Assembly: GCA_963677765.1 (NCBI GenBank)
Contig: OY782392.1
Coordinates: 150,001-182,000 of the forward strand
DNA from: Candidatus Saccharimonadota bacterium
Lineage (GTDB): Bacteria > Patescibacteriota > Gracilibacteria > BD1-5 > UBA6164
Direction of reading: 5' to 3'
DNA: 32,000 nt
The position numbers were made by a program, and so were the translations under genes. Positions 4,625-32,000 of this stretch are shown here, piece after piece; position 1 is the stretch's first letter; the number at the start of each line of letters is the position of its first letter. The notes beneath the pieces are model-generated. The model did not search any database, was not told the DNA's origin, and worked only from the letters and a program-made list of their open reading frames with translations.

Positions 4625-4660
4625 ACTAAGATTTAAATCTTAGTTTATTTTTTATTTTAT
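4623..4660. terminator. Bidirectional hairpin terminator shared by tgt (+) and the convergent large membrane-protein gene (-)
   Basis: aaactaagat (4623-4632) / atcttagttt (4637-4646), a perfect 10-bp stem with an A-run upstream and a T-run downstream. The minus-strand stop at 4652-4654 lies in the T-tract. Confidence 0.75.
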
Positions 4661-7600
4661 TTCAAATAATGCTTTGTAAGTAGTTCATATAACATTACTT
4701 ATAGCAGCAGGAGTTCTTTCCTTGTCTTGGAAATATATTTTATAAGGTAATAAAAATGAATAACTTTCTTGATTTACTAAATCATTATCTAGTAAAAAAT
4801 CTATATATCTAGCACATTCATTTCTTTTGTTTCATCTAGGTATAACATCTCAGGCATCAGTATAGCTTTCATAATTTATTCCAGATAATAACATATATTC
4901 TTCCATATTTTGAGTTTCTTTATATCTCTCTAATCAAACTTCTAAACAAATACTATCTGTAGATATAAGATTTAAATCTTCTGATACAAAACTTGATAGA
5001 AGCTTTTCATATCTATTTGTTAAGTCCTTTGTTTCAGATTTATCAATAGTAGCAGCATTCAAATCAACCAATAAATATTTAATTCAAATAGATTTCATCC
5101 TAGAAATAGTTTCATTCAAATCATCAGAATAAATATAATCATTGAATTTGAACAATAAGTTATCCTCCCATAGTCTAGAATTGTTTTCAGAAATATAGTA
5201 TTTTAAAAATGTTCCTATTCTATAGATTTTTTCTTTATTTCTATATTCATCACTTGGGTTGGCTATATTTTTATATAGTCTTTCTTTTGATTTTTTAGCT
5301 TCAATCTTTATTTTTTTTGCTCTAGATTCACTTGAGTCAAGCTTTGAATCATCAGTTTTAATTATAGAATTCAAAATAGATAAAATATCTCATATTTCAA
5401 AGTTTAAAATATTTGGAGTAAGAGAAACAATATCTTCTGATATATATTCTTTTAAGAATTCTTGTTTTTTTGTATCATCTATATTTAGAGTATACAATAT
5501 ATCTAAATAATCACTATGATAAGCAAAAATAGCTTCATTGCTAGAAAATTGTCACACTTTGTATTGTTCATATCATCATGATTTTAAATTGTTTGATACG
5601 TTTGGAATTATAGAATTGAAAACATATATCAAAAATATTGATAAAAATATAAACGATATAAACATTTTTATAAAATAATCTTTTTGTCAGTATTCTTCTT
5701 GATTGTAAATAACTAAACTATAAGCAGAAAGTCATATCATCAATAAAAATGAAAAATACATAGTTATACCATACCAAACAATACCAAAACTAGATATCAT
5801 CCATAAAAAAGTATAAAGTGAAGCGAAAACAAGATTTAGTATAAAAATTTGATTTAATCTAGTATTTTTTAATGTAAATAACAAATAAATAGTAGGTACA
5901 AAAAATCATAAAAATATATAAAGATAACCTAGAGGTATATTTATAGAAGAAAAGAAATCTATAATTTTTCAACTTATATTTCTTGAACTAGACCAATTAT
6001 CAATAATTAATTGCCTTTGAGAGTTATCAAGCTCATTAGAATCTAGACTTTTTTCTAAATCTGCTATATCATTAATCTCAAAAACATAATAATTATTATA
6101 ATGATTTCATAATGATTTTATATATTCTATATCATTATCAGATAATGGGTTTACCATAAATGATATTTTTCAATCATAGTTTCAGTCTAGTATTTTTTGT
6201 TTTATCTCTTCATAAAATATTTTTAAACTAGATTGTTTTAATATATCAATCTCTTGTTTTAAAATTATATCTTTATAATAATCAAAATTCTCTAAATACT
6301 CACTACTGTACTTAGTAACTAAAGAATTTATTTCATCAGCAGTTCAGTTTTTACTATTTTGTTTTGCCTTGGTAGTAGCTTCATTCAAAATAAGCTCTCT
6401 AGTTTTTTTAACTAACTCATTTTCTCAAATAGTTTTTGCTAAATCATCATCACTTATATATTTTCAAAAATTTATTTGATATATATTTTTTGAAGAATCA
6501 ATAGAAAAAATACTATCATCTTTTGATAAAACTCATGAAAGACTTTGTACATTTATAGTTGATAAGTTTTCTATATTTATTTTTGTTGTTTTTGCAGGTA
6601 TATAAGATATAAACTGTATAAATGCTAGAACAACAAAAAATAATGGGAATAATGGATGTCTATATCTAAGAAAAATAAATACAAGAGGAAGTAATGCAAG
6701 AAATAAAAATCATATATCAGTATATTCTCATGACTGATTTTTTTGCATAGTAAGATTCCATGGCATATAAACATAATCCAATATACCATTACTATAACCA
6801 AAATATCTTAGTAAATCTTCATTTGTAGTTATAGAGTTTTCTTTTTTTCTTTCGTTAGAATAAAATTCTCTTATTTCAGTTAATTCTTCGTCTGTATATA
6901 TAGATGAAAAATCTGGAACAAAATTATCTCAAGTTCATTTTAAAATTTTATTAACACTTATGTTTGGATAAGATTCAATTATATTTTTGCTAAACCAAGG
7001 AGTAAGTATAAGTATAACTCAAGCTAAAAATATAAGTATTTCTTTTATATATCTAATAGAGTTTTGTCTTTTTAATACAAATCATATTCACAAAAACAAA
7101 ACACCTACAACTATAGAAACTCATCAAAATATATTTTCAAATCAAACTATATTATAAGGATTTATAACTACGTTCATCATTGACCATAGCCCAAATAATG
7201 TAAAAACTCAGAAAAACACAGATATATATCATACAAAACCTATAATAGATAATCTATTATAAGTAATTATAGCAAGAATAGATACTATAAAAAGTAATGC
7301 TGTAAACTTTACACTAAATGCAAATCAAGCTATCAATCATATAATAAATAAATATATTATAGATAATTTTTCTCAAGAATTATCTTTTTCATACAAGAAG
7401 TATTTTATAACAGAATACAAAGCTATAACTGTTATAAAAAACAATCCTGCATCTACTTTCATATCTTTGCTAGATAAAAAAGTAATCATAGGTAATGATA
7501 TAAAAATAGTTGATAATATTATTCCTAGATTTAGAAATGATTTTTTGTTTTGTTCTTTTGGTTTTAATAAGTCAGAAAATACTATATTTAAAACTAGAAA

Positions 7601-8488
7601 ACTTATAAACAAACCACTAACATTTATAAAAAATGCTTGAGTTGGATTAGAAAAAAGATAACCAATAGAAGTAAAAGCTTGCCAAGAATACATAGAAGTA
7701 AGAGATAATAACTCTCATGCTTCAGCTATAAGATGTGGATAGTTCATATATACACCCAAATCATCCCAACCTATAGGAAAAGGTCTAAATATAGTAACCA
7801 ATGCTACAGTTAAAACAAAAAATGATAACAAAGTAAAAAACTCTGTAGAAATAAGTTTTAAATAACTTCATTCTTTTATACTTAACTTGTATTCTTTTTC
7901 TAAAAAAGAATTACTCAAATCTATTATTTGTTTTCTAGAAAACCAAGTAAAAATAGCCAATATAGCAAAAACTATAAACAAGTTATAAAAACCTATAGCT
8001 GCAAAAATAACTATAGATGTAACAAATAAGCTAATACCTAATCATATAGACAATAAAAGAGAAAAACTATTAGATAGTTTATCAAAATCTGGAAGTCTTT
8101 CTAAAATAGATCTAGCAAAAGAAGTAGTTATTACAAAAATTACTATAGGTAAGATACTAAAAAGTAATACCTTAAAAAATAAGACAATAGCAGATATTAT
8201 AATAGTATCATTTAATCAAGCAGGACTAACTTTGAAAAAAAACAAACAAGTAACAAATAGATTCAAAACAAAATACCCTAATAAATGAGTATTTTTAAAA
8301 TAAGCTATTTCTTTTGAGTTACTCAATTGAATATATTTATATATAGCATATATTATTCATATAAGAAGCAAATAAAAAATATATCAATCAAAACTAGTTA
8401 GATGACCTCAATATACGAAGTAATAATTAAAAATTATAAATACTGAAAAAAGTAGTAAAACAAATAATTTTAGTAAGTAACTTATCAT
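4652..8488 (-). CDS. Very large (1278-codon) polytopic membrane protein; possible GT-C-fold (ArnT/PMT-like) glycosyltransferase with a large soluble C-terminal domain
   Basis: ATG at 8488-8486 (MISYLLKLFVLLLFSVFIIFNYYFVYgGHL...). The listed ORFs 7373..7693 and 5084..5374 lie in the same frame. I checked 7373 down to about 7080 codon by codon (only TGA, no TAA/TAG) and read the remainder continuously. Many hydrophobic segments; first-loop motif FRPFPIGWDDLGVYMNYP (about 7745-7790). Hydrophilic insert at about 6600-6000 and soluble tail at about 5600-4652. TAA at 4654-4652. Confidence 0.6.
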
Positions 8489-8629: not shown

Positions 8630-9763
8630 ATGGATTATTTTAAAAAAAGTTTAGAAATGCATGAACAAATGCAAGGTAAAATTGATTTTAATTCAAAAAT
8701 AGAAATAAACTCAAAAGATATATTATCAACAGCATATAGCCCATGAGTAGCAGAACCTTGTAAAGAAATACAAAAAGATAAAGAAAATGCCTACAAATAT
8801 ACTATAAAATCAAATACTATAGCAGTTATAAGTGATTGAAGTGCTGTTTTATGATTATGAAATATCTGAGCACTAGCTTCACTACCTGTTATGGAATGAA
8901 AATGTGTATTACTAAAAGAATTTGCTTGAGTTAATGCTTTTCCTATAGTACTAGATACTCAAGATACTGAGGAAATAATAAAAACAATAAAAAACATATC
9001 ACCAACTATATGATGAATAAATCTAGAAGATATAAGTGCTCCTAGATGTTTTGAAATAGAAGAAAGATTAAAAAAAGAATTAAATATACCAGTATTTCAT
9101 GATGATCAACACTGAACAGCTATAGTTACTTTGGCATGACTTATAAATTCGCTAAAAGTAGTTTGAAAAGAAAAAGAAAATGTAAAAATAGTTGTTAATT
9201 GACTATGAGCTGCTGGAACTGCGATAATAAAACTATTAAAAAACTATTGATTTGAAAACATAGTAGTATGTGATAGTAAATGAATAATATCAAAAGATAG
9301 AAAAGATTTAAATACTGAAAAAAATAAAATTCTAGAAATAACAAACATAGAAGATATAAAATGAAAATTAAGTGATGCTTTAGTTTGAGCTGATATATTT
9401 ATAGGAGTTAGTGTTGCATGAGCTCTTACAAAAGAAATGCTAAAAACTATGAAAAAAGACCCTATAATATTTGCAATGGCAAATCCTATTCCTGAAATAA
9501 TGCCAGAAGAAGCAATTGAAGCATGAGCAAAAATAATAGCGACTTGAAGAAGTGATTATCCAAATCAATTGAACAATGTACTAGTTTTTCCTTGATTATT
9601 TGCATGAGCTTTAAAAAATAGAGTAACTCAAATAACAGAAGAACACAAAATAAATGCAGCTATAAAATTGGCTGAATATGTAAAAAACCCAAGTGCTGAA
9701 GAAATAATACCAAGCCCTCTAGATAAAAATGTTGCCAATATAATAGCAAGTGTTATAAAATAA
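8630..9763 (+). CDS. NAD(P)-dependent malic enzyme (short, MaeB/YtsJ-like, no PTA domain)
   Basis: [23 protein letters not shown]...[11 protein letters not shown]...[47 protein letters not shown]...FHDDQHgTAIVTLAgLINSLK...VVNgLgAAGTAI. TAA at 9761-9763. Confidence 0.85.
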
Positions 9764-9850: not shown

Positions 9851-11368
9851 ATGATAGAACAATATAATTCATTAGCCGAAAAATTCATACGTAAAGGTTT
9901 TTGGCTTTATATCTTTTGATTTATAATATGACCTATATGATATATTATAAAAATAATTATATCATGAGAATTATCAGTAAGTGATGTATGAGTGCTTTAT
10001 GGGATCATAAGTCTTGTTACTCTAATATCTGCATATAATGACTTATGAATGACTGAGAGTCTAAAACATTTTTTACCAAAATATGTTACAGAAAAAGACT
10101 ATACAAAAGCAAAATCTATAATATTTTATGCACTTTTTGCTCAAGTGATTTCTTCACTAATAATTGCTAGTATTTTTTGGTTTTGATCTGATTTTTTGGC
10201 AAATAATTATTTCAAATCAGAAGCTGCAAGTGATGTATTAAAAGTATTTGCTTTTTTCTTTATATGAATAAATATATTTCAAACACTAAACAATTTTTTT
10301 ATAGCAGTTCAAGATACATTTAGCCACAAAATAACAGAACTCATAAGAATGATGTTTATACTTATTTTTGTAGTATCAATATTTTTTCTAGATTTATCTA
10401 GTTTATTAAATTTTAGTTTTTCATGGCTAGTATGATTATATGTATGAATACTAGTAACTATATATGTTTTTTATAAAAAATACTATAAAAAATATTTCAA
10501 AAATACAAAAATAGTTATAGATAAAAAAGAAATAAAAACAGTATCAAAATATGCCTTTATGGTTTTTATATGAGCATGAGCAGCTACTATTTTGTGACAA
10601 ATAGATATGCAAATGATTATATATATGCTTGGTACTACTGATGCTTGATACTATACAAACTACCTAAGTATAATATGAATTCCTTTTATAATAATAGCTC
10701 CTATTTTTGCTTTTTTGTTCCCTGTTTTTTCAGAGTTTCATAGCAAATGAGATCATAGCAAGATAAAAATAGTAAAAGATATATTTACAAAAAACTTTAT
10801 TTTGATTGCTATAATGTTTAATATATTTTTCTTTGTTTATTCTAATACTCTTACCTATACTTTGTTTGGAGAAAAATTTATAACATCTTGAGAGATTTTA
10901 AAATACTCTATTTTGTTACTTGTTTTTAATTTTTTACTACAAATAAACTTCAATATAATGGCTGGTATTTGAAAAGTAAAACAAAGGGTTCAAATAGTTT
11001 TTATAGCTATAGTTTTTAATTTTATAATGAACTTGATACTTATAAATACTATATGAGTTTATTGAGCTGCTCTTGCAACATGACTATGATGGATTCTTAT
11101 ATGGTTATTATCAGAAATATATTTATGAAAACAATATTTTATAAATTTTGATTATATTTCTATAATAAAAAATACTGTTATATTATGAGTTTTATGAACA
11201 CTTATATACAAATATATAATTCCCTACTTTTGAGAATTAAGTAGATTAGAATCATTATTTTTTCTTGCTATATCATTTTTTATATGGACTTGAGTATTTG
11301 TAGTATCAAATCTAAAAGATTTTAAGTTTTTTATACTAGAAATAAAAAAACTAAAAAAGACTAGATAA
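9851..11368 (+). CDS. MOP-superfamily polysaccharide/oligosaccharide flippase (Wzx/SpoVB-like), 505 codons
   Basis: MIEQYNSLAEKFIRKGFWLYIFgFIIgPIgYIIKIIISgELSVSDVgVLYGIISLVTLISAYNDLgMTESLKHFLPKY..., hydrophobic throughout. C-terminal GVYgAALATgLgWILIWLL resembles flippase termini. TAA at 11366-11368. Confidence 0.7.
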
Positions 11369-11388
11369 TATCTAGTCTTTTTTTTTAT
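11353..11388. terminator. Bidirectional terminator between the flippase (+) and secreted protein A (-)
   Basis: agactaga (11358-11365) / tctagtct (11371-11378), flanked by an A-run and a T-run. Both stop codons (11366-11368 on + and 11385-11387 on -) lie within or next to it. Confidence 0.7.
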
Positions 11389-12197
11389 TTAGAGTCTAAT
11401 ACTTCTTGCATTAAATCTCTCAAATATGTATAAGCTGTAATTCTATCAACTTGAACCCATTGAGCTATTTTTAAGTTTTTTGTATTTTCTATAGATTTAT
11501 TTAAAACTGCTATAGCATTTTCTATAGTAGAAGTTTTTGCTTTTTTTATAACACCTTTAAATCTAGCATCGTATTTTTTGTATGAATTATATTTTGAAGT
11601 ATTTATATAATTACTACATTGACCTTCATAAGCATAGTTATAATCAGCCATACATGCATTACCATATGTTTTACCATCATTACCACAAACTGGTTGATAT
11701 TGCATAGTACAAAATCTTATTTCTTCTTGATCTTCTTCTTTATTTTCTTCTTTTAATTCTTCTATTTTTTCTTCATCATAAGCATTACAAGACCATGCTT
11801 CAGAACCATTTTCACCATAAGTATCTTCACAATACATCATAGTCATACCTCATAATTTACCATTATTTATCATAACAGTATTACAACCATCAGTTGCAGA
11901 TTTACATATATTTCATTCTGCTTCTAAGAATAAAGCACTTGTAGGATAAGTTTTTGCTTTTGTATAATCAACACTATCATCACAAGTATTATCACCTTCA
12001 CAATCATTCATTCAGTCAAAATCTAAATCCCAGCTTTGGTGCATTGATTTTGTAGTATCTGTATAATCTATAGAAGTAGTAGTTATAGATCTAGTACTAG
12101 GTTCATCATTGTTTACTTCTTTATCAGGGTTATATTCAGCTCATACTGAAGCTATAAACATAGCTGATAAAATAATAGTTGCGATTGTTTTTTTCAT
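11385..12197 (-). CDS. Secreted Cys-rich protein A: signal peptide, DxDxDG-like acidic Cys module, Kazal-like protease-inhibitor loop, helical C-terminal domain
   Basis: ATG at 12197 ([25 protein letters not shown]...[33 protein letters not shown]...[25 protein letters not shown]...). Kazal-like core [33 protein letters not shown] at 11616..11711. Extends the listed ORF 11385..11846 upstream through 4 TGA codons. Confidence 0.72.
11949..12044. repeat. Nucleotide-level repeat copy 1 (N-terminal module of paralogue A); partner at 13981..14075
   Basis: gtttttgcttttgtata...cacaatcatt.attcagtcaaaatc.aaatcccа-like run, visibly conserved between the two loci. It encodes [22 protein letters not shown]..DYTKAKTY. 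Confidence 0.7.
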
Positions 12198-12248
12198 AAC
12201 AAAAAAGTTAAAAATTAATAATAAAAAATCTATTTATCTAGATTGCAT

Positions 12249-12281
12249 ATATTAAAACGAAATAAAATAAAAAAGGTGACA
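12249..12281 (-). promoter_or_regulatory. Conserved upstream element of protein A: TGTCAC-N13-TTTCGTT followed by a -10-like TAATAT
   Basis: Plus strand shows aacga at 12256-12260 and gtgaca at 12276-12281. The same words occur with identical 18-nt c-to-g spacing upstream of paralogue C. Confidence 0.35.
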
Positions 12282-12310
12282 AAAAAATATTTTTTTATTT
12301 TAAAAAGTTA

Positions 12311-12339
12311 AAAAGACTAATTTTAATTAGTCTTTTTTA
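12311..12339 (-). terminator. Hairpin terminator downstream of secreted protein B
   Basis: agactaatt (12314-12322) / aattagtct (12325-12333), flanked by A/T runs. It sits immediately 3' of the stop at 12340-12342. Confidence 0.6.
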
Positions 12340-13062
12340 TTATTTATTATCATCATTTTCTTCGTCTTCTTCGTCTTCGTCATCTTCTTCATCATCATCT
12401 GAGTCATCTTCGTCTTCATCGTTATCATCTTCTGAATTAGAGTCTTCATCTTCCATTACATCATCTCACATAACATCTTCTAATACTTCTTCCAAAGTAG
12501 TATCATCAGAGTTTTCATAAACCTCTTGTAATCTATCATCTATTTTTGTTTGTAAGTCTAACAATACAGCTTCAATCAAAGCTCTAGTTTCTTCATTTGA
12601 TATATTTTCTAGATCAAGCATCACCCTATCTATTTTTTCACTAGTATTTTTTAACCAGTTAACATTATTTATAGCAGAAACTTTTTTATCTAAGATTTTT
12701 TGAGCTCATACAAATTGTGCTCTTTTTTTCTCACTGATATTTTCTACTCTTTGTTTGATTTTAGAAGCTCTTTCTTCTTTTTTTTGTTCTAATAATTCTT
12801 TTCTTGCTTCTATAGCTTGTTTAACTTTTGCTGCTCTATCTTTACCTTTTAGTTGGTTTTCAGGAGTACAAGAGTCATCACTATCATCACAATCATTATC
12901 AACTCAATTTCTACTAGGTTTGTTAGATCTACTAGAATTATAATCACTAGATGTAGATTCTATACTAGTAGTTGTAGTTTCTTGAGTTTCATCTTCTGCA
13001 TTTGCAACTCATGTAGCAACAAAAAACAATGAAACCAATAATAAAGAAATTGCTTTTTTCAT
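12340..13062 (-). CDS. Secreted acidic coiled-coil protein B with a poly-Asp/Glu C-terminal tail
   Basis: ATG at 13062 (MKKAISLLLVSLFFVATgVANAEDETQETTTTS...RNgVDNDCDDSDDSCTPENQLKGKDRAAKVKQAIEARKELLEQKKEERASKIKQ...EDEDSNSEDDNDEDEDDSDDDEEDDEDEEDEENDDNK). TAA at 12342-12340. Confidence 0.65.
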
Positions 13063-13133
13063 AATAAAAAATAGTTATTATATAATATAAGAACATTTTT
13101 TATTATAATTAAGATAGAACATATATCAAAATA

Positions 13134-13175
13134 AAAAGTTAATTAAAAATTGATTAATTAACTTTTTATTTTTTA
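13134..13175 (-). terminator. Hairpin terminator downstream of secreted protein C
   Basis: aaagttaattaa (13135-13146) / ttaattaacttt (13154-13165), flanked by A and T runs. Confidence 0.6.
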
Positions 13176-13181
13176 GATATA

Positions 13182-14168
13182 TTATCTAGATTTTAATTCT
13201 TTTTTTAATAACTCTTTTACAAAAATAAACTGAGTCATTTTTTTCTTTATAACACTTATTTCCCTTTTAGGTAAAAGGTATTCATCAATCATTTTATCAA
13301 CTCTATCTATTGCTCTAGTTAAAACATCAACTGAAACATTATCTAGTTTTTTTAGAAGAATATCTTCATAAGACATATATTTTTTGTAAGATATTATATC
13401 TACAAAATTATTACATTGTCATGTATACAAAACAGGATTATCTCAAGCCATACATGAGTTAGAAAAAGTTTGTTGTACAGGATAACATGGAGCTTTTATA
13501 CATTGAACTTGTACTTCTGCACATACAGGAGCATATTCCATAGTACAAACTTTGTTTTCGATAGGTTCTTTAGATGATTCCATATGTTTTTTTACTTCAT
13601 CCAAAGTAAGTGTTACAACTCAAGTAACATGACCATCTTCATATTCTACTACTATATTGTTATCACTATGCCATTTTACTGACAATACATACCAAGTTCA
13701 TCATAAAACTGGTTTTTCATATGTAAGAGATGATATATTTTTTCTAATATATTTTATATATTCCATTTTGTATTCACTATATTTGATTGATTCGATTTTT
13801 TCTTCATCATATCACATACATGAATAAGCTAGATTTCATCCTTCTCAATAAATATCTTCACAATACATTTCTGTTGAATTAGAAAATTCTCAATCAGAAA
13901 TCCAGATATTATTACATCAATCAGTTGCCAAACTACAAAAATCTCATTCAATAGATAAAAAATCCTCTTTAGATGAATAAGTTTTTGCTTTTGTATAGTC
14001 TATAGTATGGTCACATGTATTGTCTTTTTCACAATCATTTATTCAGTCAAAATCCAAATCCCAACTTTGATGCATTACTCCAGCATCACTATAATCAGAA
14101 GCATTAGAAAAAGATGGAAAAAATACAAACAAAGAAAAAATCAAAAAACTAAAAGCTATTTTTTTCAT
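13182..14168 (-). CDS. Secreted Cys-rich protein C (paralogue of A) with an extra insert and a 6-Cys Kazal-like variant
   Basis: ATG at 14168 ([64 protein letters not shown]...YCEDIYgEGgNLAYSCMgYDEEKIE...). Kazal-like VCTMEYAPVCAEVQVQCIKAPCYPVQQTFSNSCMAgDNPVLYTgQC at 13413..13547. Same frame as the listed ORF 13182..13376. TAA at 13184-13182. Confidence 0.72.
13981..14075. repeat. Nucleotide-level repeat copy 2 (N-terminal module of paralogue C)
   Basis: See 11949..12044. I aligned the two by eye; most differences fall at third codon positions. Confidence 0.7.
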
Positions 14169-22819: not shown

Positions 22820-23065
22820 CTACTTCAAGATTCAAAAAAAACTTATAACAAGTTCATCATCTATTATTTCATACAAAAATCTATAATCTCATATTCTAAG
22901 TCTGTAACAAAAAGGTAGTCATTTCAATACTTTTATATCAAGATTATTTTCATATGGATCTATACTAAATATGGTAATAGCTTTTTCAAATTTATAAATT
23001 ATATCTTGTCATTTTTGTTTTTCTAAGAATTTTTGAACTGACTTTTCTAGTAATATTTTATACAT
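22820..23065 (-). CDS. RelE/ParE-family type II toxin (81 codons)
   Basis: MYKILLEKSVQKFLEKQKgQDIIYKFEKAITIFSIDPYENNLDIKVLKgLPFCYRLRIgDYRFLYEIIDDELVISFFgILK, with TAG at 22822-22820. The YRLRIGDYR...Y.I motif is typical of the family. Confidence 0.7.
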
Positions 23066-23336
23066 ATTATTTTAAGCTATTTAAAAAGCTAAAAGCCTCG
23101 ACTGAATCTTTTCAATGACTACTATTTTTATATGATTTAATATCATTACTTGTAGCTATTTCAGTATCAAAAGATACTTTTTTTAAAGAATTATATTCAT
23201 CAATACTTAGAAAAACACCTACAGGTTTATTTTGAGATAATATTATTCTCTTACCTATAATTTTTGTGTCTTTTACAACTTTTGAAGTATTATCTCTTAA
23301 TTCAGATATAGAGACAAAATTTTTTTCTGTTAACAT
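23058..23336 (-). CDS. Phd/YefM-like antitoxin (92 codons)
   Basis: ATG at 23336 (MLTEKNFVSISELRDNTSKVVKDTKIIGKRIILSQNKPVGVFLSIDEYNSLKK...). TGA at 23114-23112 is read through to TAA at 23060-23058, giving an 8-nt overlap with the toxin start. Confidence 0.6.
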
Positions 23337-24828: not shown

Positions 24829-26628
24829 TTAAAAAAAATTATATTTCTTATTTAGTATATAAAATACTAATATAGATATAACAACTATAAAAAACAAAAT
24901 AGAGTATAAAAAAAGTTTTTTCATATTGTTTATATTATTATCATTTTCTAAATCATAATTTTGAGTTTTTTCTATTTTTAAATCATTTGTTTCTTTTGAA
25001 TTATCAGATATTTTTTCAAATACTTCTTCATCTATATCTTCATCTTGTCATAGCTCATCAAAATTAATATTATCTTCGATAATTAATTCTTCTTCAATTA
25101 GTTCATCATTTTTTGATGATAAAAACTCTACTTCAAAATATGATTTAAATTCTCTAGAATAATTATCGTATACTTTTAAAGTAACATTGTATATTCATGG
25201 ATTGATATAATTAATATATCAAGGATTAACTCAATCATAAGTTTCTCAGTTTCAAAAATCCCAATAATAACTAGATATATTTCATATTGATTCACTAGCA
25301 TCAAAATTTACACTACAAGATTCATAACATATAAGTTTATTATTTAATAGTTCTTTATTTTGTCCTATTTTTCATTGAACTTGTATTTTTAGATTTACTT
25401 CACTATAGTTTTGTATATCTATTATTTCACTATTATCATCTTTATAGAAATCTTCTTTATAGTTATTATAATAACTAGAAGACAAACTAAATTTTTCTAT
25501 TATTTCTTTTAGTTCATTTATTTGGTTTTGATAGTCAGATATATTTTTTTCATTTGTATTATCCTCTTTATCTGTTTCACTGGAGTTTAATTCTTCATAT
25601 TTTCAAGTTACTTCTAATTTCAAAAAATCTCTATCCATATTTCAGTCTATATCTACAACTTCAAGCATGATATCATAATATCATTTTTCAAAAATAAGAG
25701 ATGATGGATCTTTTATACTAAAATAAGTTTCATTTGATAAATCCCAAAAATACTGCAAACCATCACCTGTTGATTCACTAGCTGTCAAATTTATACTACA
25801 ACTATCTACTCAATCACAAACTAATGTATCTCATTTGAACATTTTTCATGTAGTTAAATCTCATTGCAAAGTTATTTTTGCTTTTGTTTGTGTTTTTTTA
25901 TAAAGATTTCTAAAAATAAAATGAGTATTTTTACAATGATCACTATAGTTTTTATCACAAACTTCTAAAACTAACTCATGTTTTCATTCTCAAAAGTTCA
26001 GATGTTCAGGGTTACAACCATAAACAACAAAATCATCTCAGAAATCCCAATAACAAGTTAAGTTTTTATTATTAGTATCGTATTTAAAATTTACTAAACA
26101 TTCTTTTTTATAACAAAAATTATTTTCATCTAATCATGATTGGACTATTATATTTGGTTTATCAAATATTTCTTTTTCTGATTTTATATTACTATCATAT
26201 TTATAATAATTATTTTCATCATCTAAGTTATCATCATTATTTTGATTTGAAGAGTCATTATATTTTATAGCAAGATTATTTTCACTACTAGTATAAGAAA
26301 AAGTATCTAATAAACTATTATTAGAGTCATACAAATATAGTTCTTCATTTGTATTGTTTAGTATAATATTTGTTTGAGTTCTATAATATTTTTTTATTTG
26401 TCATCATGATAAATAATCCCCTGTTATATTATAAATTTTTCATCATTTATCAGATATAGAATATCAGTCCAAACTTTTTCAATTACTAGAATTGTTTTTT
26501 ATACTAATATATTCCATATTTAAATCATCATCAGTATTTGGTAAAACTTCATATATTATAAAGTTACTAAAACTAGTATTTATAAGGGAGAAAAACAATA
26601 AAAACACAAAAACAAATACTTTTTTCAT
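24829..26628 (-). CDS. Surface protein: signal peptide + lamin-tail (LTD) domain + three PKD-like domains + acidic linker + C-terminal TM anchor (599 codons)
   Basis: MKKVFVFVFLLFFSLINTSFSNFIIYEVLPNTDDDLNMEYISIKNNSSNgKSLDgYSISDKgg...EELYLYDSNNSLLDTFSY (LTD). PKD signatures CYWDFgDDFVVYGCNPEHLNFgEgKHELVLEVCD, YFWDLSNETYF...YYDIMLEVVDIDgN and YYWDFgNgETYDgVNPgYINYINPgIYNVTLKVYDN. Tail LFLYSILFFIVVISILVFYILNKKYNFF. TAA at 24831-24829. Confidence 0.75.
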
Positions 26629-29406: not shown

Positions 29407-29751
29407 ATGAATAAAACTTATATGGCTTCTGGTATAGCAGCTGCAGTAGTAGTTGTAGCTTGAGTAATTGCTTGGACAATGTCTTCTTCTGTTGCAAATG
29501 ATGACTATACTTGTTATAACTATTCTATGGTTCAAGGTTCATGTCAAATAAATGAAGCTAACTGTGGAGCATGGGAAAATGGTAAAAGAGTTTGTAATGG
29601 TACTAGAATAGATACTTATTCTAGAGGAAGTTCATATAGATGTGGTACTTTTGGTGGTGAAGACAGAGAAAGATATACAGTTAATGCTGCATGTAGTGTA
29701 GAACAAACTGATACAGTTTCTCCAGAAGTTATCGAAGGTTGAGTTGAATAA
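29407..29751 (+). CDS. Small (114-codon) membrane-anchored/secreted 6-Cys protein, unknown family
   Basis: MNKTYMASGIAAAVVVVAgVIAWTMSSSVANDDYTCYNYSMVQGSCQINEANCGAWENGKRVCNGTRIDTYSRGSSYRCGTFGGEDRERYTVNAACSVEQTDTVSPEVIEGgVE. TAA at 29749-29751, followed by a strong terminator. Confidence 0.6.
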
Positions 29752-29847: not shown

Positions 29848-32000
29848 ATGAAAAAAATTATATTTTCTATCTTTTTATTCATAATTTTAGGTATTTCAAA
29901 TGCTCATGCAGCAAATAATTGAAACTGAAATTGAAATTGAGATACTTGAACATGAACTGTTGAAGAAACTGAAATTGTAAAAGTAATGTTTTTTGAACAA
30001 AATGCTGATTTATCAACATGAGAAAAAATAAATACAGAAGTAGTTGAATGAATAATTCAAGAAGATATATTTAATAACTTCATAAAAAAAAGTGTAAGTG
30101 TTTTTTTGTACTATAAAAAATGAGAAGAAGAAAAGCTTTTTAAGAGGGTTTTTGATGAAAACACTTCATGAGTAGTAACTATTAATGCTGTTATAAATGA
30201 AACAAAAACTATAACAAAACAAATAAAAGTTATTAGAATAAACAAACAAGCTCCTACTTGAGTATTAAAATATTCTCCTTCAAACAATACTTGGGTTAAT
30301 TCTTCAAAAACTGTAACTCTAGAATGAGCTGCTGCATGAGAAGACTGGTTAGTATGAAACTCTAAACCAAGTTATAAGTGTGAAGAACAAGGTTGATGTA
30401 TATGAACTTTGAGCATTCAAGACTCAGCTGGTAATGTTTTAGAGCTAGAATATAATATACAAAAAATAGATAAAATAAATCCTACTATACATGTAACTGC
30501 ATATCCTGAAATAGCTTCATGAAAACAAAAAATATGATATAGATGTGAAGATAATGGATGAAGTTGATGTAAAAATTGAACTGATGAAAAAATAGATTAT
30601 TTACCAACAGGTAGTTCAAAAATTTATTGTATAGAAGATAATGCTTGAAATTCTTCATGTCAAAAAGTAACAGCTGCAAATTCAGATAGAGATTATTCAG
30701 ATGATCATCTAGCTCATACAAATGATAAAAGAAAACTATTTTTAAAATGTATAGATAACTTTAGTTGATGTACTAGTCCTGATGTTATAGAATACAAATA
30801 CAAAAATATAGCTAGTACAAACCTAACTATAAAAGATAATGCTTGAAATTCATATACAAAAGTTTTTCAAATATCAAAAATAGATAAAGTAGATCCAACT
30901 GTAACAATAACTTCTCCAAATAGTTTTAAAGCTACTGATGATTCTAGAATAAATGTTAGTTTCAATGATAATGTTCCAGCAAGCCAAATAAATGATTATT
31001 CTGAAAGTTGAATAAAAGAAGCAAAATACAAATGGAATTCTAGTTGTAAATCATGAACCAATATAACTTGAACAAGTGTTATAAACTGAGAAAATATAAA
31101 CCATACAGTAGCATGAAATCATAAACTATATCTTTGTGCTATAGATAATGCTGGTAATATATGAGAAACTTCAAAAGATATAATTATATACCCTTGAGAC
31201 CTTGATTTATCTCAATCATCTGTATATGCTGATACTACAAATAATAAGTATGCAAATTTTAAAGATTATTACTTATATAATTTACAATTAAAAGACAAAT
31301 ATTGAAACCCAATATTTAACAAAGAAGCAACTGAAGTAAAACAAAAATGTGATGATTCTTCTTGTAAAACATTATTCTTGGATATGGTAGATACAACTCT
31401 AAAAGATGATGCATTAATAGAATATGATTTTGCAAACAAAACAAATACAAGTTGAATTCTAAATTTCAAAATTAAATCCTATACTCCATGAGTTTTCTCT
31501 GATAATTTTTATTTCAAACTAAGAGATTGGAATGATAGTTATGGTGATGTATGATTTCCAAAAGAATACTATTTAGAATCAAATGAAAATAGTTTTCTAA
31601 AACCTATTGAATGAAAAATAGAAATTTTAGAATGATGAAATATCCCAGAAATTTGAAAAGAACAAAAATATAAAATAAATTTAATAAATACTTGAAGTCT
31701 TACTAATTATAACTCTTGAGATTTAAAAGTAGAAAAAGATTCTATAATAAATCAAGTAGAATGACATTTCTGGAATGAGTTTAAGGAAGAAAAATGATAT
31801 TTTTGAAATGATTTATCTACAGATAATATTTGATTTGTATGAAAAATTGATGCAAATAAAAACATATTAAAATGACCTCAAATAAAAGCATATAATTTAG
31901 AAATAAAATATAATCTTTTTGGTCAAAATGTAAGATATTTATTAGATAATTTAGATTCTGGACAAAGCTGTGATTTAGAAACTCTTTGAGCAAAAATATT
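29848..32000 (+). CDS. Large secreted surface protein with tandem Ig-like DxAGN modules; 3' end outside the window (more than 717 codons)
   Basis: MKKIIFSIFLFIILGISNAHAANNgNgNgNgDTgTgTVEETE.... Four modules end in IQDSAGN, IEDNAgN, IKDNAgN and AIDNAGN, each followed by KIDK(I/V)(N/D)PT-type linkers. I read the frame continuously to 32000 with no TAA/TAG. Confidence 0.7.

Follow-up and report, generated by a model that had tools for sequence, protein, structure and literature searches.

The window analysed here is the whole 32,000-nucleotide stretch of contig OY782392.1 (positions 150,001 to 182,000 of the forward strand) from a Candidatus Saccharimonadota bacterium. It carries three consecutive minus-strand genes, designated A, B and C, whose products are predicted to be exported, and the sequences of A and C point to two forms of the Kazal protease-inhibitor domain, one short and one with an insert. 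As in the preliminary description of this DNA, the trio occupies positions 11385-14168, from the stop codon of A to the ATG of C, and the open reading frames obtained with genetic code 25 match this span; no competing open reading frame of 70 residues or more lies on the strand opposite to the trio. The three genes and the two Kazal domains are as follows.

11385 to 12197, minus strand: gene A (table-25 open reading frame), 270 residues; signal peptide, Thr-rich linker, modules M1 and M2, short Kazal domain and three-helix tail
12340 to 13062, minus strand: gene B, 240 residues; signal peptide, Ser/Thr-rich stretch, CDDSDDSC pair, helical region of about 125 residues and poly-Asp/Glu tail
13182 to 14168, minus strand: gene C, 328 residues; signal peptide, modules M1, M2 and M3, long Kazal variant and three-helix tail
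11616 to 11711, minus strand: Kazal core of A (C163 to C194); loop C163-T-M165(P1)-Q-Y-Q-P-V-C171, with four Cys equivalent to Kazal Cys2, Cys3, Cys4 and Cys6
13413 to 13547, minus strand: Kazal variant of C (C208 to C252); CTMEYAPVC, followed by an insert of 14 residues that contains two additional Cys (AEVQVQCIKAPCYP) and by TFSNSC...GQC; six Cys in total

The whole window (positions 1-32000) uses genetic code 25, in which TGA encodes Gly, because TGA occupies invariant glycines in three conserved neighbouring genes: the motif MKIxVIxTGYVxL of UDP-glucose dehydrogenase, the motif DSxxFQV of the tRNA-guanine transglycosylase Tgt, and the motif HEWxHF of the M50 protease RseP. Readings with table 11 or table 4 are ruled out by the same glycines of these housekeeping proteins, and under the standard code TGA interrupts all three reading frames. 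The G+C content is about 22%, and the small recoded genome that the preliminary description had proposed is borne out by the housekeeping motifs. Code 25 is also the code of Gracilibacteria and Absconditabacteria.

When A was compared with the Pfam profile hidden Markov models (HMMs), both Kazal families scored above their cut-offs: Kazal_1 with 37.7 bits (curated cut-off 21, E 2.1e-9) and Kazal_2 with 24.7 bits (cut-off 22.8). On this sequence evidence the Kazal domain of A is genuine, as had been proposed. NCBIfam gave no match to A, and 25 homologues of the protein were found. Sequence matches of the A segment in the Protein Data Bank (PDB) were overwhelmingly Kazal-type inhibitors; the Anemonia elastase inhibitor (AEI) was the best single domain (E 8e-9, 18/23 residues identical), and further matches included ovomucoid domains, GmSPI-2, LDTI, infestin and SPINK1.

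The classical six-Cys pattern (pairs 1-5, 2-4 and 3-6) was not found in A, as C163, C171, C182 and C194 stand alone in the domain. A aligned end to end with LDTI (C-terminal half), with a Tyr at the position of Cys5 and no Cys1. The classical ovomucoid-type topology was considered for A and is ruled out by the missing Cys1 and Cys5. By this alignment, the Kazal domain of A would stand with GmSPI-2 and LDTI in the short, non-classical type that has two disulfides, and we infer that its four Cys pair as the equivalents of Cys2-Cys4 and Cys3-Cys6.

An AlphaFold2 (AF2) model of A was built from the window's own TGA-free segment (residues 117-270) with an alignment of 23 rows, and the predicted local distance difference test (pLDDT) values were 88-97 over the Kazal domain and the tail. 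A Foldseek search of the PDB with this model revealed GmSPI-2 (4hgu) as the top match, with a template modelling (TM) score of 0.77 (target-normalised), a root mean square deviation of 1.8 Å over 40 columns and 42% identity; LDTI was second, with a TM score of 0.73. Both matches had a Foldseek probability of 1.00, yet their E-values were weak (0.03-0.07) because the domain is tiny. The predicted fold of A appears to match solved Kazal inhibitors.

GmSPI-2, a silk inhibitor of Galleria, consists of 36 residues with two disulfides and a seven-residue loop, and is strong against subtilisin and proteinase K (PMC4169406). It shares with A the four Cys, the equivalents of Cys2-Cys4 and Cys3-Cys6 (the pairing in A being taken from the alignment), the lack of Cys1-Cys5, the seven residues between the loop Cys, the ten residues between Cys3 and Cys4, and the position of P1 at Cys2+2. 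It is both the best structural match of the A model and the best PDB match of the profile of the C variant. A and C differ from it in being bacterial proteins of several domains in which P1 is Met, whereas GmSPI-2 is a free insect peptide with Thr at P1; C additionally has the 14-residue insert and the extra Cys pair.

AEI (PDB 1y1b/1y1c), a non-classical Kazal inhibitor, shares the C-T-M-Q-Y loop with A, but it is a cnidarian peptide of 48 residues in which all six Cys are kept and the Cys1-Cys5 pair is shifted, and its similarity to A stops after Cys4. AEI reportedly has Met at P1 and inhibits elastases (Hemmi et al. 2005, cited in PMC4169406). The preliminary description had compared the loop of A with the ovomucoid third domain, and part of that comparison stands. 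The third domains of turkey and silver pheasant ovomucoid (OMTKY3/OMSVP3) are identical to A at 13/20 residues, the string C-T-x-E/Q-Y-x-P-x-C-G-x-D-x-K-T-Y-G-N-x-C being common to both, and P2 Thr, P2' Tyr and the loop-supporting Asn are shared; the core at 11616..11711, its canonical spacing and its Met P1 are as proposed. The topology is not ovomucoid-like, as the Cys1-Cys5 disulfide is missing. The ovomucoid domains, unlike A, have three disulfides (1-5, 2-4 and 3-6) and carry Cys1 on an N-terminal segment and Cys5 on a complete central helix, and chains of the OMTKY3 type reached TM scores of only 0.37-0.49 against the A model.

The loops themselves, CTMQYQPVC in A and CTMEYAPVC in C, are canonical, with the Cys2-x7-Cys3 spacing, P1 at Cys2+2 and the Asn of T-Y-x-N-x-Cys4, and the spacing of both is identical to that of GmSPI-2. 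In ovomucoid third domains, as studied by Laskowski and co-workers, P1 is the residue two positions after Cys2 and a conserved Asn props up the loop; Met at P1 had been proposed for both A and C, and the spacing agrees with this. A P1 Met binds well to subtilisin, chymotrypsin and elastases. Given this residue, the predicted targets are proteases whose S1 pocket is hydrophobic, of either the subtilisin-like (S8) or the chymotrypsin/elastase-like (S1) kind. Among 20 family members, the Kazal core provided the sole invariant columns besides the start codon, namely Cys, Thr (P2), Tyr (P2'), Pro, Cys, Thr, Asn, Cys, Ala and Cys, with Met at P1 in at least 90%. Across 25 Kazal cores from 22 homologues found by whole-protein similarity, P1 was Met in 21, Arg in three and Leu in one.

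The domain of C was placed in register with the Kazal domain of A by the family alignment, in which CTMEYAPVC...TFSNSCMA...YTGQC of C corresponds to the core of A and the 14-residue insert AEVQVQCIKAPCYP stands in place of the G-x-D-G-K turn. A longer two-Cys insert instead of the GxDGKTY segment, as previously described for C, is thus seen in the alignment. We collected 15 variants of the C type from Gracilibacteria, Absconditabacterales, Peribacteria and unclassified genomes, and all six Cys were invariant in them; the extra Cys pair lies inside the insert and not at Kazal positions 1 and 5. When a profile of this variant was compared with the PDB, the best matches were GmSPI-2 (1.3e-5) and AEI (2.2e-5), and 46 of the 47 matches were Kazal-type chains, the exception being a weak match to ScNPI (E 0.39). 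The matches were split in two pieces that flank the insert. Because the profile matches almost only Kazal inhibitors, the C domain is taken to be a Kazal derivative with an added local Cys pair, a subtype that standard HMMs miss. A third Kazal subtype was observed in the relatives P0036, P0037 and P0024, where a longer Pro-rich insert (C.EYY.PVCAQPPMPECPEGM.CIQ.MP..KTYSNEC) occurs in tandem with the short type.

Outside the Kazal domains, the following modules of A and C were delimited.

11946 to 12044, minus strand: module M1 of A (residues 52-84), with the pattern MHxSWDxDxDGxNDCE...TCDD..DYT; it contains two Cys, and Gly62 of its acidic, DxDxDG-like loop is encoded by TGA
13977 to 14075, minus strand: module M1 of C (residues 32-64), paralogous to M1 of A
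11787 to 11930, minus strand: module M2 of A (residues 90-137), a four-Cys, decayed pacifastin-like domain
13818 to 13961, minus strand: module M2 of C (residues 70-117), likewise a decayed pacifastin-like domain
13602 to 13760, minus strand: module M3 of C (residues 137-189), NIS.L...PVLGG.WYV...YEDGH; absent from A
11388 to 11615, minus strand: C-terminal tail of A (residues 195-270), a predicted three-helix bundle of 76 residues
13185 to 13412, minus strand: C-terminal helical tail of C, from the family alignment and the model of the relative P0009

A and C are paralogues as judged from these shared modules: M1 and M2 together are 56% identical (E 1e-44), and the Kazal domain with the tail is 26% identical (E 6e-12). 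The modules common to A and C had been recognised in the preliminary description, and in both genes a TGA codon supplies the Gly of the DxDxDG-like motif. The number of Cys is even in every module of the two proteins.

In an alignment of 13 sequences, the invariant residues of M1 were M, H, W, D, D, N, D, C, E, C, D and Y, and the acidic motif read W-D-x-[DN]-x-D-G-x-N-D-C-E, with the G at least 90% conserved. The calcium loop proposed earlier agrees with the conserved D-x-[DN]-x-D-G pattern. Neither Pfam (EF-hand, Excalibur, TSP_3 or other families, at E up to 10 in one search and 0.01 in another) nor a profile search of the PDB gave a match to M1, and the acidic residue that follows the loop stands at position 11, compared with position 12 in an EF-hand. 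The Excalibur loop has its acidic residue at position 10. Calcium binding by M1 is a reasonable guess that we draw from the DxDxDG pattern.

M2 has the pattern FL.AEG..C..ATDGCN...G....T.MYCED...C and covers the 'YCED...SC' region, a Cys module that the preliminary description had left anonymous. Pacifastin domains follow the pattern C1-x(9-12)-C2-N-x-C3-x-C4-x(2-3)-G-x(3-6)-C5-T-x3-C6. M2 was traced to them through an intermediate, a six-Cys relative in other proteins from the Candidate Phyla Radiation (CPR) with the pattern C.S.FDGCNTC...CT.M.C...C. Comparison of the two profiles by hhalign gave a probability of 97.5% (E 6.7e-12), and the CPR six-Cys profile matched 14 PDB chains, all of which were pacifastin-family inhibitors, with SGPI-1 as the best (1.6e-4). 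The CPR six-Cys relatives scored 21.6 and 17.7 bits against Pfam Pacifastin_I, below the cut-off of 27.9; a proteobacterial protein (L033) with three units of a pacifastin-like and a Kazal domain scored 38.8 bits, and the M2 of A and the four M2 copies of the relative P0004 gave no match to Pacifastin_I. M2 by itself had no match to any other Pfam family either. By this remote homology, M2 is classed as a decayed pacifastin-like domain. It does not carry the full pacifastin Cys pattern: G-C-N (C2), T-x3-C (C6) and the outer Cys pair are kept, Val or Ile stands at C3, and Met, Ala or Ser stands at C5. In comparison with the pacifastins (MEROPS I19, PF05375; SGPI-1, LCMI/PMP), to which M2 is linked by homology through the CPR six-Cys domain, M2 lacks the equivalents of Cys3 and Cys5, Cys4 is already gone in the CPR form, and the C5-T-P1 frame is open. 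An inhibitory function of M2 is doubtful because the Cys framing the pacifastin reactive site are lost and the frame is open. Pacifastin-like domains in Myxobacteria and CPR genomes, with Kazal as a co-occurring domain, were reported in 2026 (PMC13388995).

M3 forms a helix and three strands in the AF2 model of P0009, which served as a proxy for C. It gave no Pfam match and no PDB profile match, and it also occurs in proteins of Falkowbacteria and other CPR lineages. Foldseek with the whole multidomain P0009 model returned noise (PCNA-like matches with TM scores of about 0.12). In the tail of A, three helices were modelled with pLDDT values above 90 (residues 84-102, 106-124 and 130-153 of the modelled segment), and Foldseek gave no significant match to it. 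Ten matches to the tail were found among 1.84 billion representative proteins, each directly after a Kazal domain; oligomerisation and cell-surface attachment are guesses as to its role. Other relatives (P0004, P0021 and P0023; L009, L010, L013 and L014) carry M2 repeats, four of them in P0004, or M2 with a Kazal domain, followed by a different tail. The alternative helical tail of those relatives reads ...YP.D..LP...N..Y..L.LLKFE..., so that the tail module, too, is exchangeable.

From these comparisons, A and C are probably Sec-exported, disulfide-bonded, modular extracellular proteins of a Gracilibacteria-type bacterium. The core of each is a non-classical Kazal domain (MEROPS I1), which would act as a canonical 'standard mechanism' serine-protease inhibitor. 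The loop C-T-M-(Q/E)-Y-x-P-V-C would be held between two disulfides, the equivalents of Cys2-Cys4 and Cys3-Cys6, and propped by the invariant Asn of T-Y-x-N-x-C; A would represent the minimal two-disulfide domain, and in C the 14-residue insert would be closed by a third, local disulfide. Upstream lie the acidic two-Cys M1, possibly binding calcium, and the decayed M2, and downstream the lineage-specific three-helix bundle. We consider it reasonably probable that A and C are exported and oxidatively folded and that their Kazal heads, with Met at P1, block serine proteases outside the cell in the standard, substrate-like manner, so protecting envelope or secreted proteins. These proteases would come from hosts, prey or neighbours of this small, host-dependent organism, and A and C would probably guard its surface or its secreted proteins against them. 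The genetic code, the gene models, the Kazal family membership, the predicted fold, the remote homology of M2, the synteny and the module indels between strains are results of the analysis, whereas we infer from them that both proteins are exported, how their Cys pair, that they are inhibitors and of which protease class, and what they do for the cell. Inhibition is favoured above all because selection has kept exactly the loop-forming residues and because the nearest solved relatives are active inhibitors. The recurrence of pacifastin-like and Kazal domains in the same secreted proteins of other prokaryotes supports the same reading.

A comparable arrangement is known from Phytophthora, where EPI1 and EPI10 are reported to have atypical two-disulfide Kazal domains that are still active against subtilisin-family proteases (PMC1236909); the role of these EPI proteins is described in PMC9904509. 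EPI1 and EPI10 resemble A and C, whose secretion is predicted, as secreted multidomain Kazal-like proteins of a host-dependent microbe. They differ in that the two-disulfide EPI domains lack Cys3 and Cys6, whereas A lacks Cys1 and Cys5, and in that Phytophthora is a eukaryote and the target is tomato P69B.

Several observations weigh against inhibition as the function. The PDB sequence matches of A also include Kazal-like modules of follistatin and agrin, and such modules in follistatin, agrin and SPARC are non-inhibitors. The Kazal fold comprises two strands, a helix and a further strand; in the A model, DSSP assigned strands but no central helix, and the Cys4-Cys6 segment is three residues shorter than that of GmSPI-2. 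The alignment behind the model is shallow (23 rows), and some rows have Trp where the true residue is Gly, because those rows had been translated with code 4. C alone scored 10.7 bits against Kazal_1, below the cut-off. Apart from the M50 protease RseP, no protease gene was found in the 32-kb window or beside the homologues (L001, L003, L084, L086, L088 and L089), and a literature search yielded no biochemical data for any prokaryotic Kazal protein. Classical Kazal inhibitors have hypervariable contact residues, whereas the loop is nearly frozen here and the ratio of nonsynonymous to synonymous substitution rates (dN/dS), given below, is low. This constancy would fit a conserved target and equally a structural role. 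The absence of a linked protease gene and the constancy of the loop, untypical of Kazal domains, are the strongest of these counterarguments.

A structural role is the content of another explanation, in which the Kazal and pacifastin-like folds are small, stable, disulfide-knotted building blocks of a non-inhibitory surface or matrix protein, such as an adhesin that attaches to the host or a calcium-binding envelope protein, comparable to agrin, follistatin and SPARC. The frozen loop and the low dN/dS are compatible with it, as are the modular architecture with the lineage-specific M1, M3 and tail, the loss from M2 of the disulfide framing the pacifastin reactive site, and the lack of a protease partner gene nearby. 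The genes also lie, in several genomes, inside a surface-polysaccharide cluster with a flippase, UDP-glucose dehydrogenase and glycosyltransferases, and in Nitrosopumilus the same Kazal core stands between a membrane anchor and cupredoxin-like repeats. However, conservation is strongest at exactly the residues from which a canonical inhibitory loop is built, namely P3 Cys, P2 Thr, P1 Met, P2' Tyr and the Asn that supports it; the nearest solved relatives AEI, GmSPI-2 and LDTI are active inhibitors rather than follistatin-type modules, and two unrelated inhibitor-family domains recur in one chain across prokaryotes. On this balance we regard a purely structural role as unlikely, and protease inhibition remains the reading that we prefer.

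If active, A and C would be among the smallest natural Kazal heads, built with two disulfides in an uncultivated, host-dependent lineage with an altered genetic code, and extracellular proteolysis would be indicated as a pressure on episymbiotic CPR cells.

The genomic site of the trio was compared with related loci. In other Gracilibacteria, one or more Kazal genes are flanked by surface-glycan genes on one side and by a convergent Polysacc_synt flippase gene on the other; a membrane protein of 1,220-1,280 residues, a TGT gene, an HD protein and an M50 protease follow. The Kazal site next to the polysaccharide flippase is conserved across Gracilibacteria, and its content varies as follows.

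L003, L086 and L089: a single Kazal gene, in some cases next to genes for a ParE toxin-antitoxin or AbiEii
L005: two Kazal genes
L001, L084 and the window: the trio C-B-A

Orthologues of C were found at the same site in L001, L003 and L084. L084 is from a strain 95% identical in DNA to the window by blastn, and its A has 159 residues and lacks M1 and M2.

11727 to 12071, minus strand: in-frame variable segment of A (M1, M2 and linker), 345 nucleotides, replaced by 12 nucleotides in L084 (positions 2388-2399)

Long and short forms of A are both present in several samples, and this strain-level, in-frame module indel is a natural experiment on module dispensability. The variable M1 and M2 modules of A are nearer to those of P0002 than to those of gene C in the window. 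Between the window and L084, dN/dS was 0.12 for C, 0.24 for B and 0.44 for A (only 17 substitutions in A), compared with 0.11-0.17 for the flanking genes. The trio genes are under purifying selection, and no signature of diversifying selection or of an arms race was seen in dN/dS between these two strains. The preliminary description had spoken of a protease-defence or host-interaction cassette; this is an interpretation, and it is accompanied neither by an adjacent protease gene in the loci examined nor by an arms-race signal.

Purifying selection and the frozen P1 Met would also fit a conserved, co-inherited target, as expected if A and C inhibited the organism's own secreted proteases, either keeping a predatory or feeding protease latent until host contact or protecting the envelope from it. 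Precedents are the Streptomyces subtilisin inhibitor and protease-inhibitor pairs of Bacillus. Gracilibacteria genomes and proteomes have been reported with peptidases, and these bacteria are host-dependent (PMC11452946). The lack of a linked protease gene at all seven loci examined and in the 32-kb window argues against control of an own protease, as does the occurrence of the same loop in distant phyla with different protease repertoires, and we judge such control improbable. A more aggressive function, in which A and C are offensive effectors or antimicrobial peptides that directly damage or arrest host or prey cells, could be considered from the variable site content beside toxin-antitoxin and Abi genes in relatives, and some Kazal proteins are reported as antimicrobial (PMC12868885, PMC10925678). 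The proteins are acidic (pI 4.5-4.8), unlike cationic antimicrobial peptides; no diversifying selection was seen; and neither a secretion-system gene nor an immunity gene is linked in the window or the loci examined. A direct attack on other cells is therefore very improbable in our view.

Some further features of this region were recorded. The 1278-residue multi-pass membrane protein at 4652-8488 (minus strand) matches no Pfam family and lies beside the flippase in every Gracilibacteria locus examined (1223-1278 residues). The malic-enzyme gene at 8630-9763 is present in the window and in L003 and missing from the 95%-identical L084, which lacks about 1.2 kb between the flippase and the 1278-residue gene. 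At 22820-23336 (minus strand), the window carries a ParE-like toxin (22.7 bits, cut-off 23) with a Phd/YefM antitoxin (38.2 bits); in L003 and L086 a ParE pair is directly beside the Kazal gene.

The Kazal core is not limited to this lineage. One genome per prokaryotic species was scanned with two short peptide patterns from the core, which yielded at least 599 stretches, and the core was confirmed by tblastn in at least 367 of them; these patterns force Met at P1, so the set is unusable for P1 frequencies. Full-length relatives came solely from Gracilibacteria and Absconditabacteria, the predatory Vampirococcus lugosii among them. The core by itself also occurs in Parcubacteria, Peribacteria, Woesearchaeota, Micrarchaeia, Nitrosopumilus, Lysobacterales and Marinicaulis, and in Pontibacter, Hymenobacter and Rufibacter as lipoproteins of 76-82 residues. 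Public protein collections already tag these proteins PF00050. When public names for bacterial Kazal proteins were sought with a short query, the four matches were all unnamed or hypothetical, and in the open literature no paper was found on Kazal domains in CPR, Gracilibacteria or archaea. The earlier statement that the trio could not be assigned to a described system overstated its novelty, given the distribution of the core and its existing PF00050 tag. As a Kazal domain, that of A is ordinary: it fits a known family and a known non-classical subtype, and it establishes neither a new system nor a new mechanism; the insert-bearing Kazal domain of C, the decayed M2 and the combination of M1, M3 and tail are lineage-specific elaborations. 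Kazal inhibitors are textbook animal proteins, whereas prokaryotic ones carry annotations from domain scanners, and no characterised example was found in the literature. The present proteins widen the range of established inhibitor families to a branch of life about which little is known. The C variant and the decayed M2 illustrate how disulfide-rich inhibitor folds can be trimmed and rebuilt in forms that standard HMMs overlook.

This distribution allows a broader reading, in which the window offers one sample of a clade of minimal Kazal domains with two disulfides that extends across the prokaryotes and serves as a general 'anti-protease armour' against a single conserved class of serine proteases in the environment. 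The nearly frozen loop C-T-M-(Q/E)-Y-(D/A)-P-V-C-G would then be shared by CPR, DPANN, ammonia-oxidising archaea, Bacteroidota and Proteobacteria, and the domain, often fused to pacifastin-like domains, would armour exposed proteins of small, surface-attached microbes. AEI and GmSPI-2, as same-loop animal inhibitors, might share a history of horizontal transfer with it, and in Gracilibacteria the armour would be remodelled between strains by gain and loss of whole modules. We regard this broader reading as tentative and somewhat unlikely.

Three groups of these proteins were recorded separately. The first consists of lipoproteins of Bacteroidota (L038, L044, L053, L056, L060, L062, L074-L076, L081 and L082; Pontibacter, Hymenobacter, Rufibacter and Sabulibacter), which come from cultured bacteria and have a single core with a different third Cys pair (CID...GEC). 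The second, from Nitrosopumilus and other Thaumarchaeota (L019, L032, L040, L048 and L063), has an N-terminal membrane anchor, a CTM(E/Q)Y(D/A)PVCG Kazal core and cupredoxin-like repeats (FCMVHPWM), which places an inhibitor-type domain at the base of putative copper proteins of ammonia-oxidising archaea. The third comprises secreted proteins in which pacifastin-like and Kazal domains alternate: L033, from a proteobacterial metagenome-assembled genome, L022, L020, L061 and L077. In L033 three such pairs are present and both Pfam cut-offs are exceeded; a DUF333-type segment also occurs in L077, L012 and L042, and its Pfam match was tested in L077 only.

Gene B had been described as a reduced paralogue that keeps only the kernel of M1, and this view had to be abandoned. 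BLASTP of A against B revealed no similarity past the signal peptide, which rules out B as a reduced paralogue of A and C; the Gly of 'gVDNDC' is not conserved in homologues of B, and the Cys spacing of the B string 'GVDNDCDDSDDSC' differs from that of M1. No Pfam or NCBIfam family matched B, and only three homologues were found among 5.8 billion clustered proteins. B has a pI of 4.1, and 32 of its last 45 residues are Asp or Glu. From these features, B is predicted to be an unrelated, lineage-restricted, acidic helical secreted protein found in few genomes, and it would have been inserted between A and C.

Signal peptides were judged from their n-, h- and c-regions, the Kyte-Doolittle hydropathy and an AxA-like site. 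Those of A, B and C are tripartite: the n-region has MKK, the hydrophobic core spans 12 residues (Kyte-Doolittle 2.5-2.8), and cleavage is predicted at the AxA-like sites VGA|EY, ANA|ED and SNA|SD, respectively.

12138 to 12197, minus strand: signal peptide of A (residues 1-20), with n-, h- and c-regions, an AxA-like site and cleavage before EY

The residues AEYNPDK around the cleavage site of A are conserved in the family alignment, and none of the three proteins has a lipobox Cys or a further hydrophobic or transmembrane segment. In line with the signal peptides that the preliminary description had assigned to all three proteins, export of A, B and C is plausible. A terminator for each gene had likewise been described, and a hairpin with a U-run was found after each; z-scores were computed against shuffled sequence.

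11353 to 11383, no strand assigned: bidirectional terminator hairpin common to gene A and the convergent flippase gene, -14.8 kcal/mol, z -5.2
12310 to 12337, minus strand: terminator hairpin after B, -10.8 kcal/mol, z -4.1
13128 to 13172, minus strand: terminator hairpin after C, -16.1 kcal/mol, z -7.2

A consensus terminator scanner reported the hairpin of A alone, as the stems after B and C are too AT-rich, with few G-C pairs, for its rule. In a promoter scan, the number of sites was not above that in shuffled sequence.

Three other genes of the window may encode exported or surface proteins. The first (29407-29751, plus strand) encodes 114 residues with an N-terminal hydrophobic segment and eight Cys, without a family match, and would be a small disulfide-rich exported protein. 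The second (29848-32000, plus strand) encodes a Cys-rich secreted or surface protein of more than 717 residues, with NGNGNGNG after its signal peptide and no Pfam family. The third (24829-26628, minus strand) encodes a surface or secreted protein of 599 residues with a lamin-tail domain, PKD domains and a C-terminal transmembrane helix.

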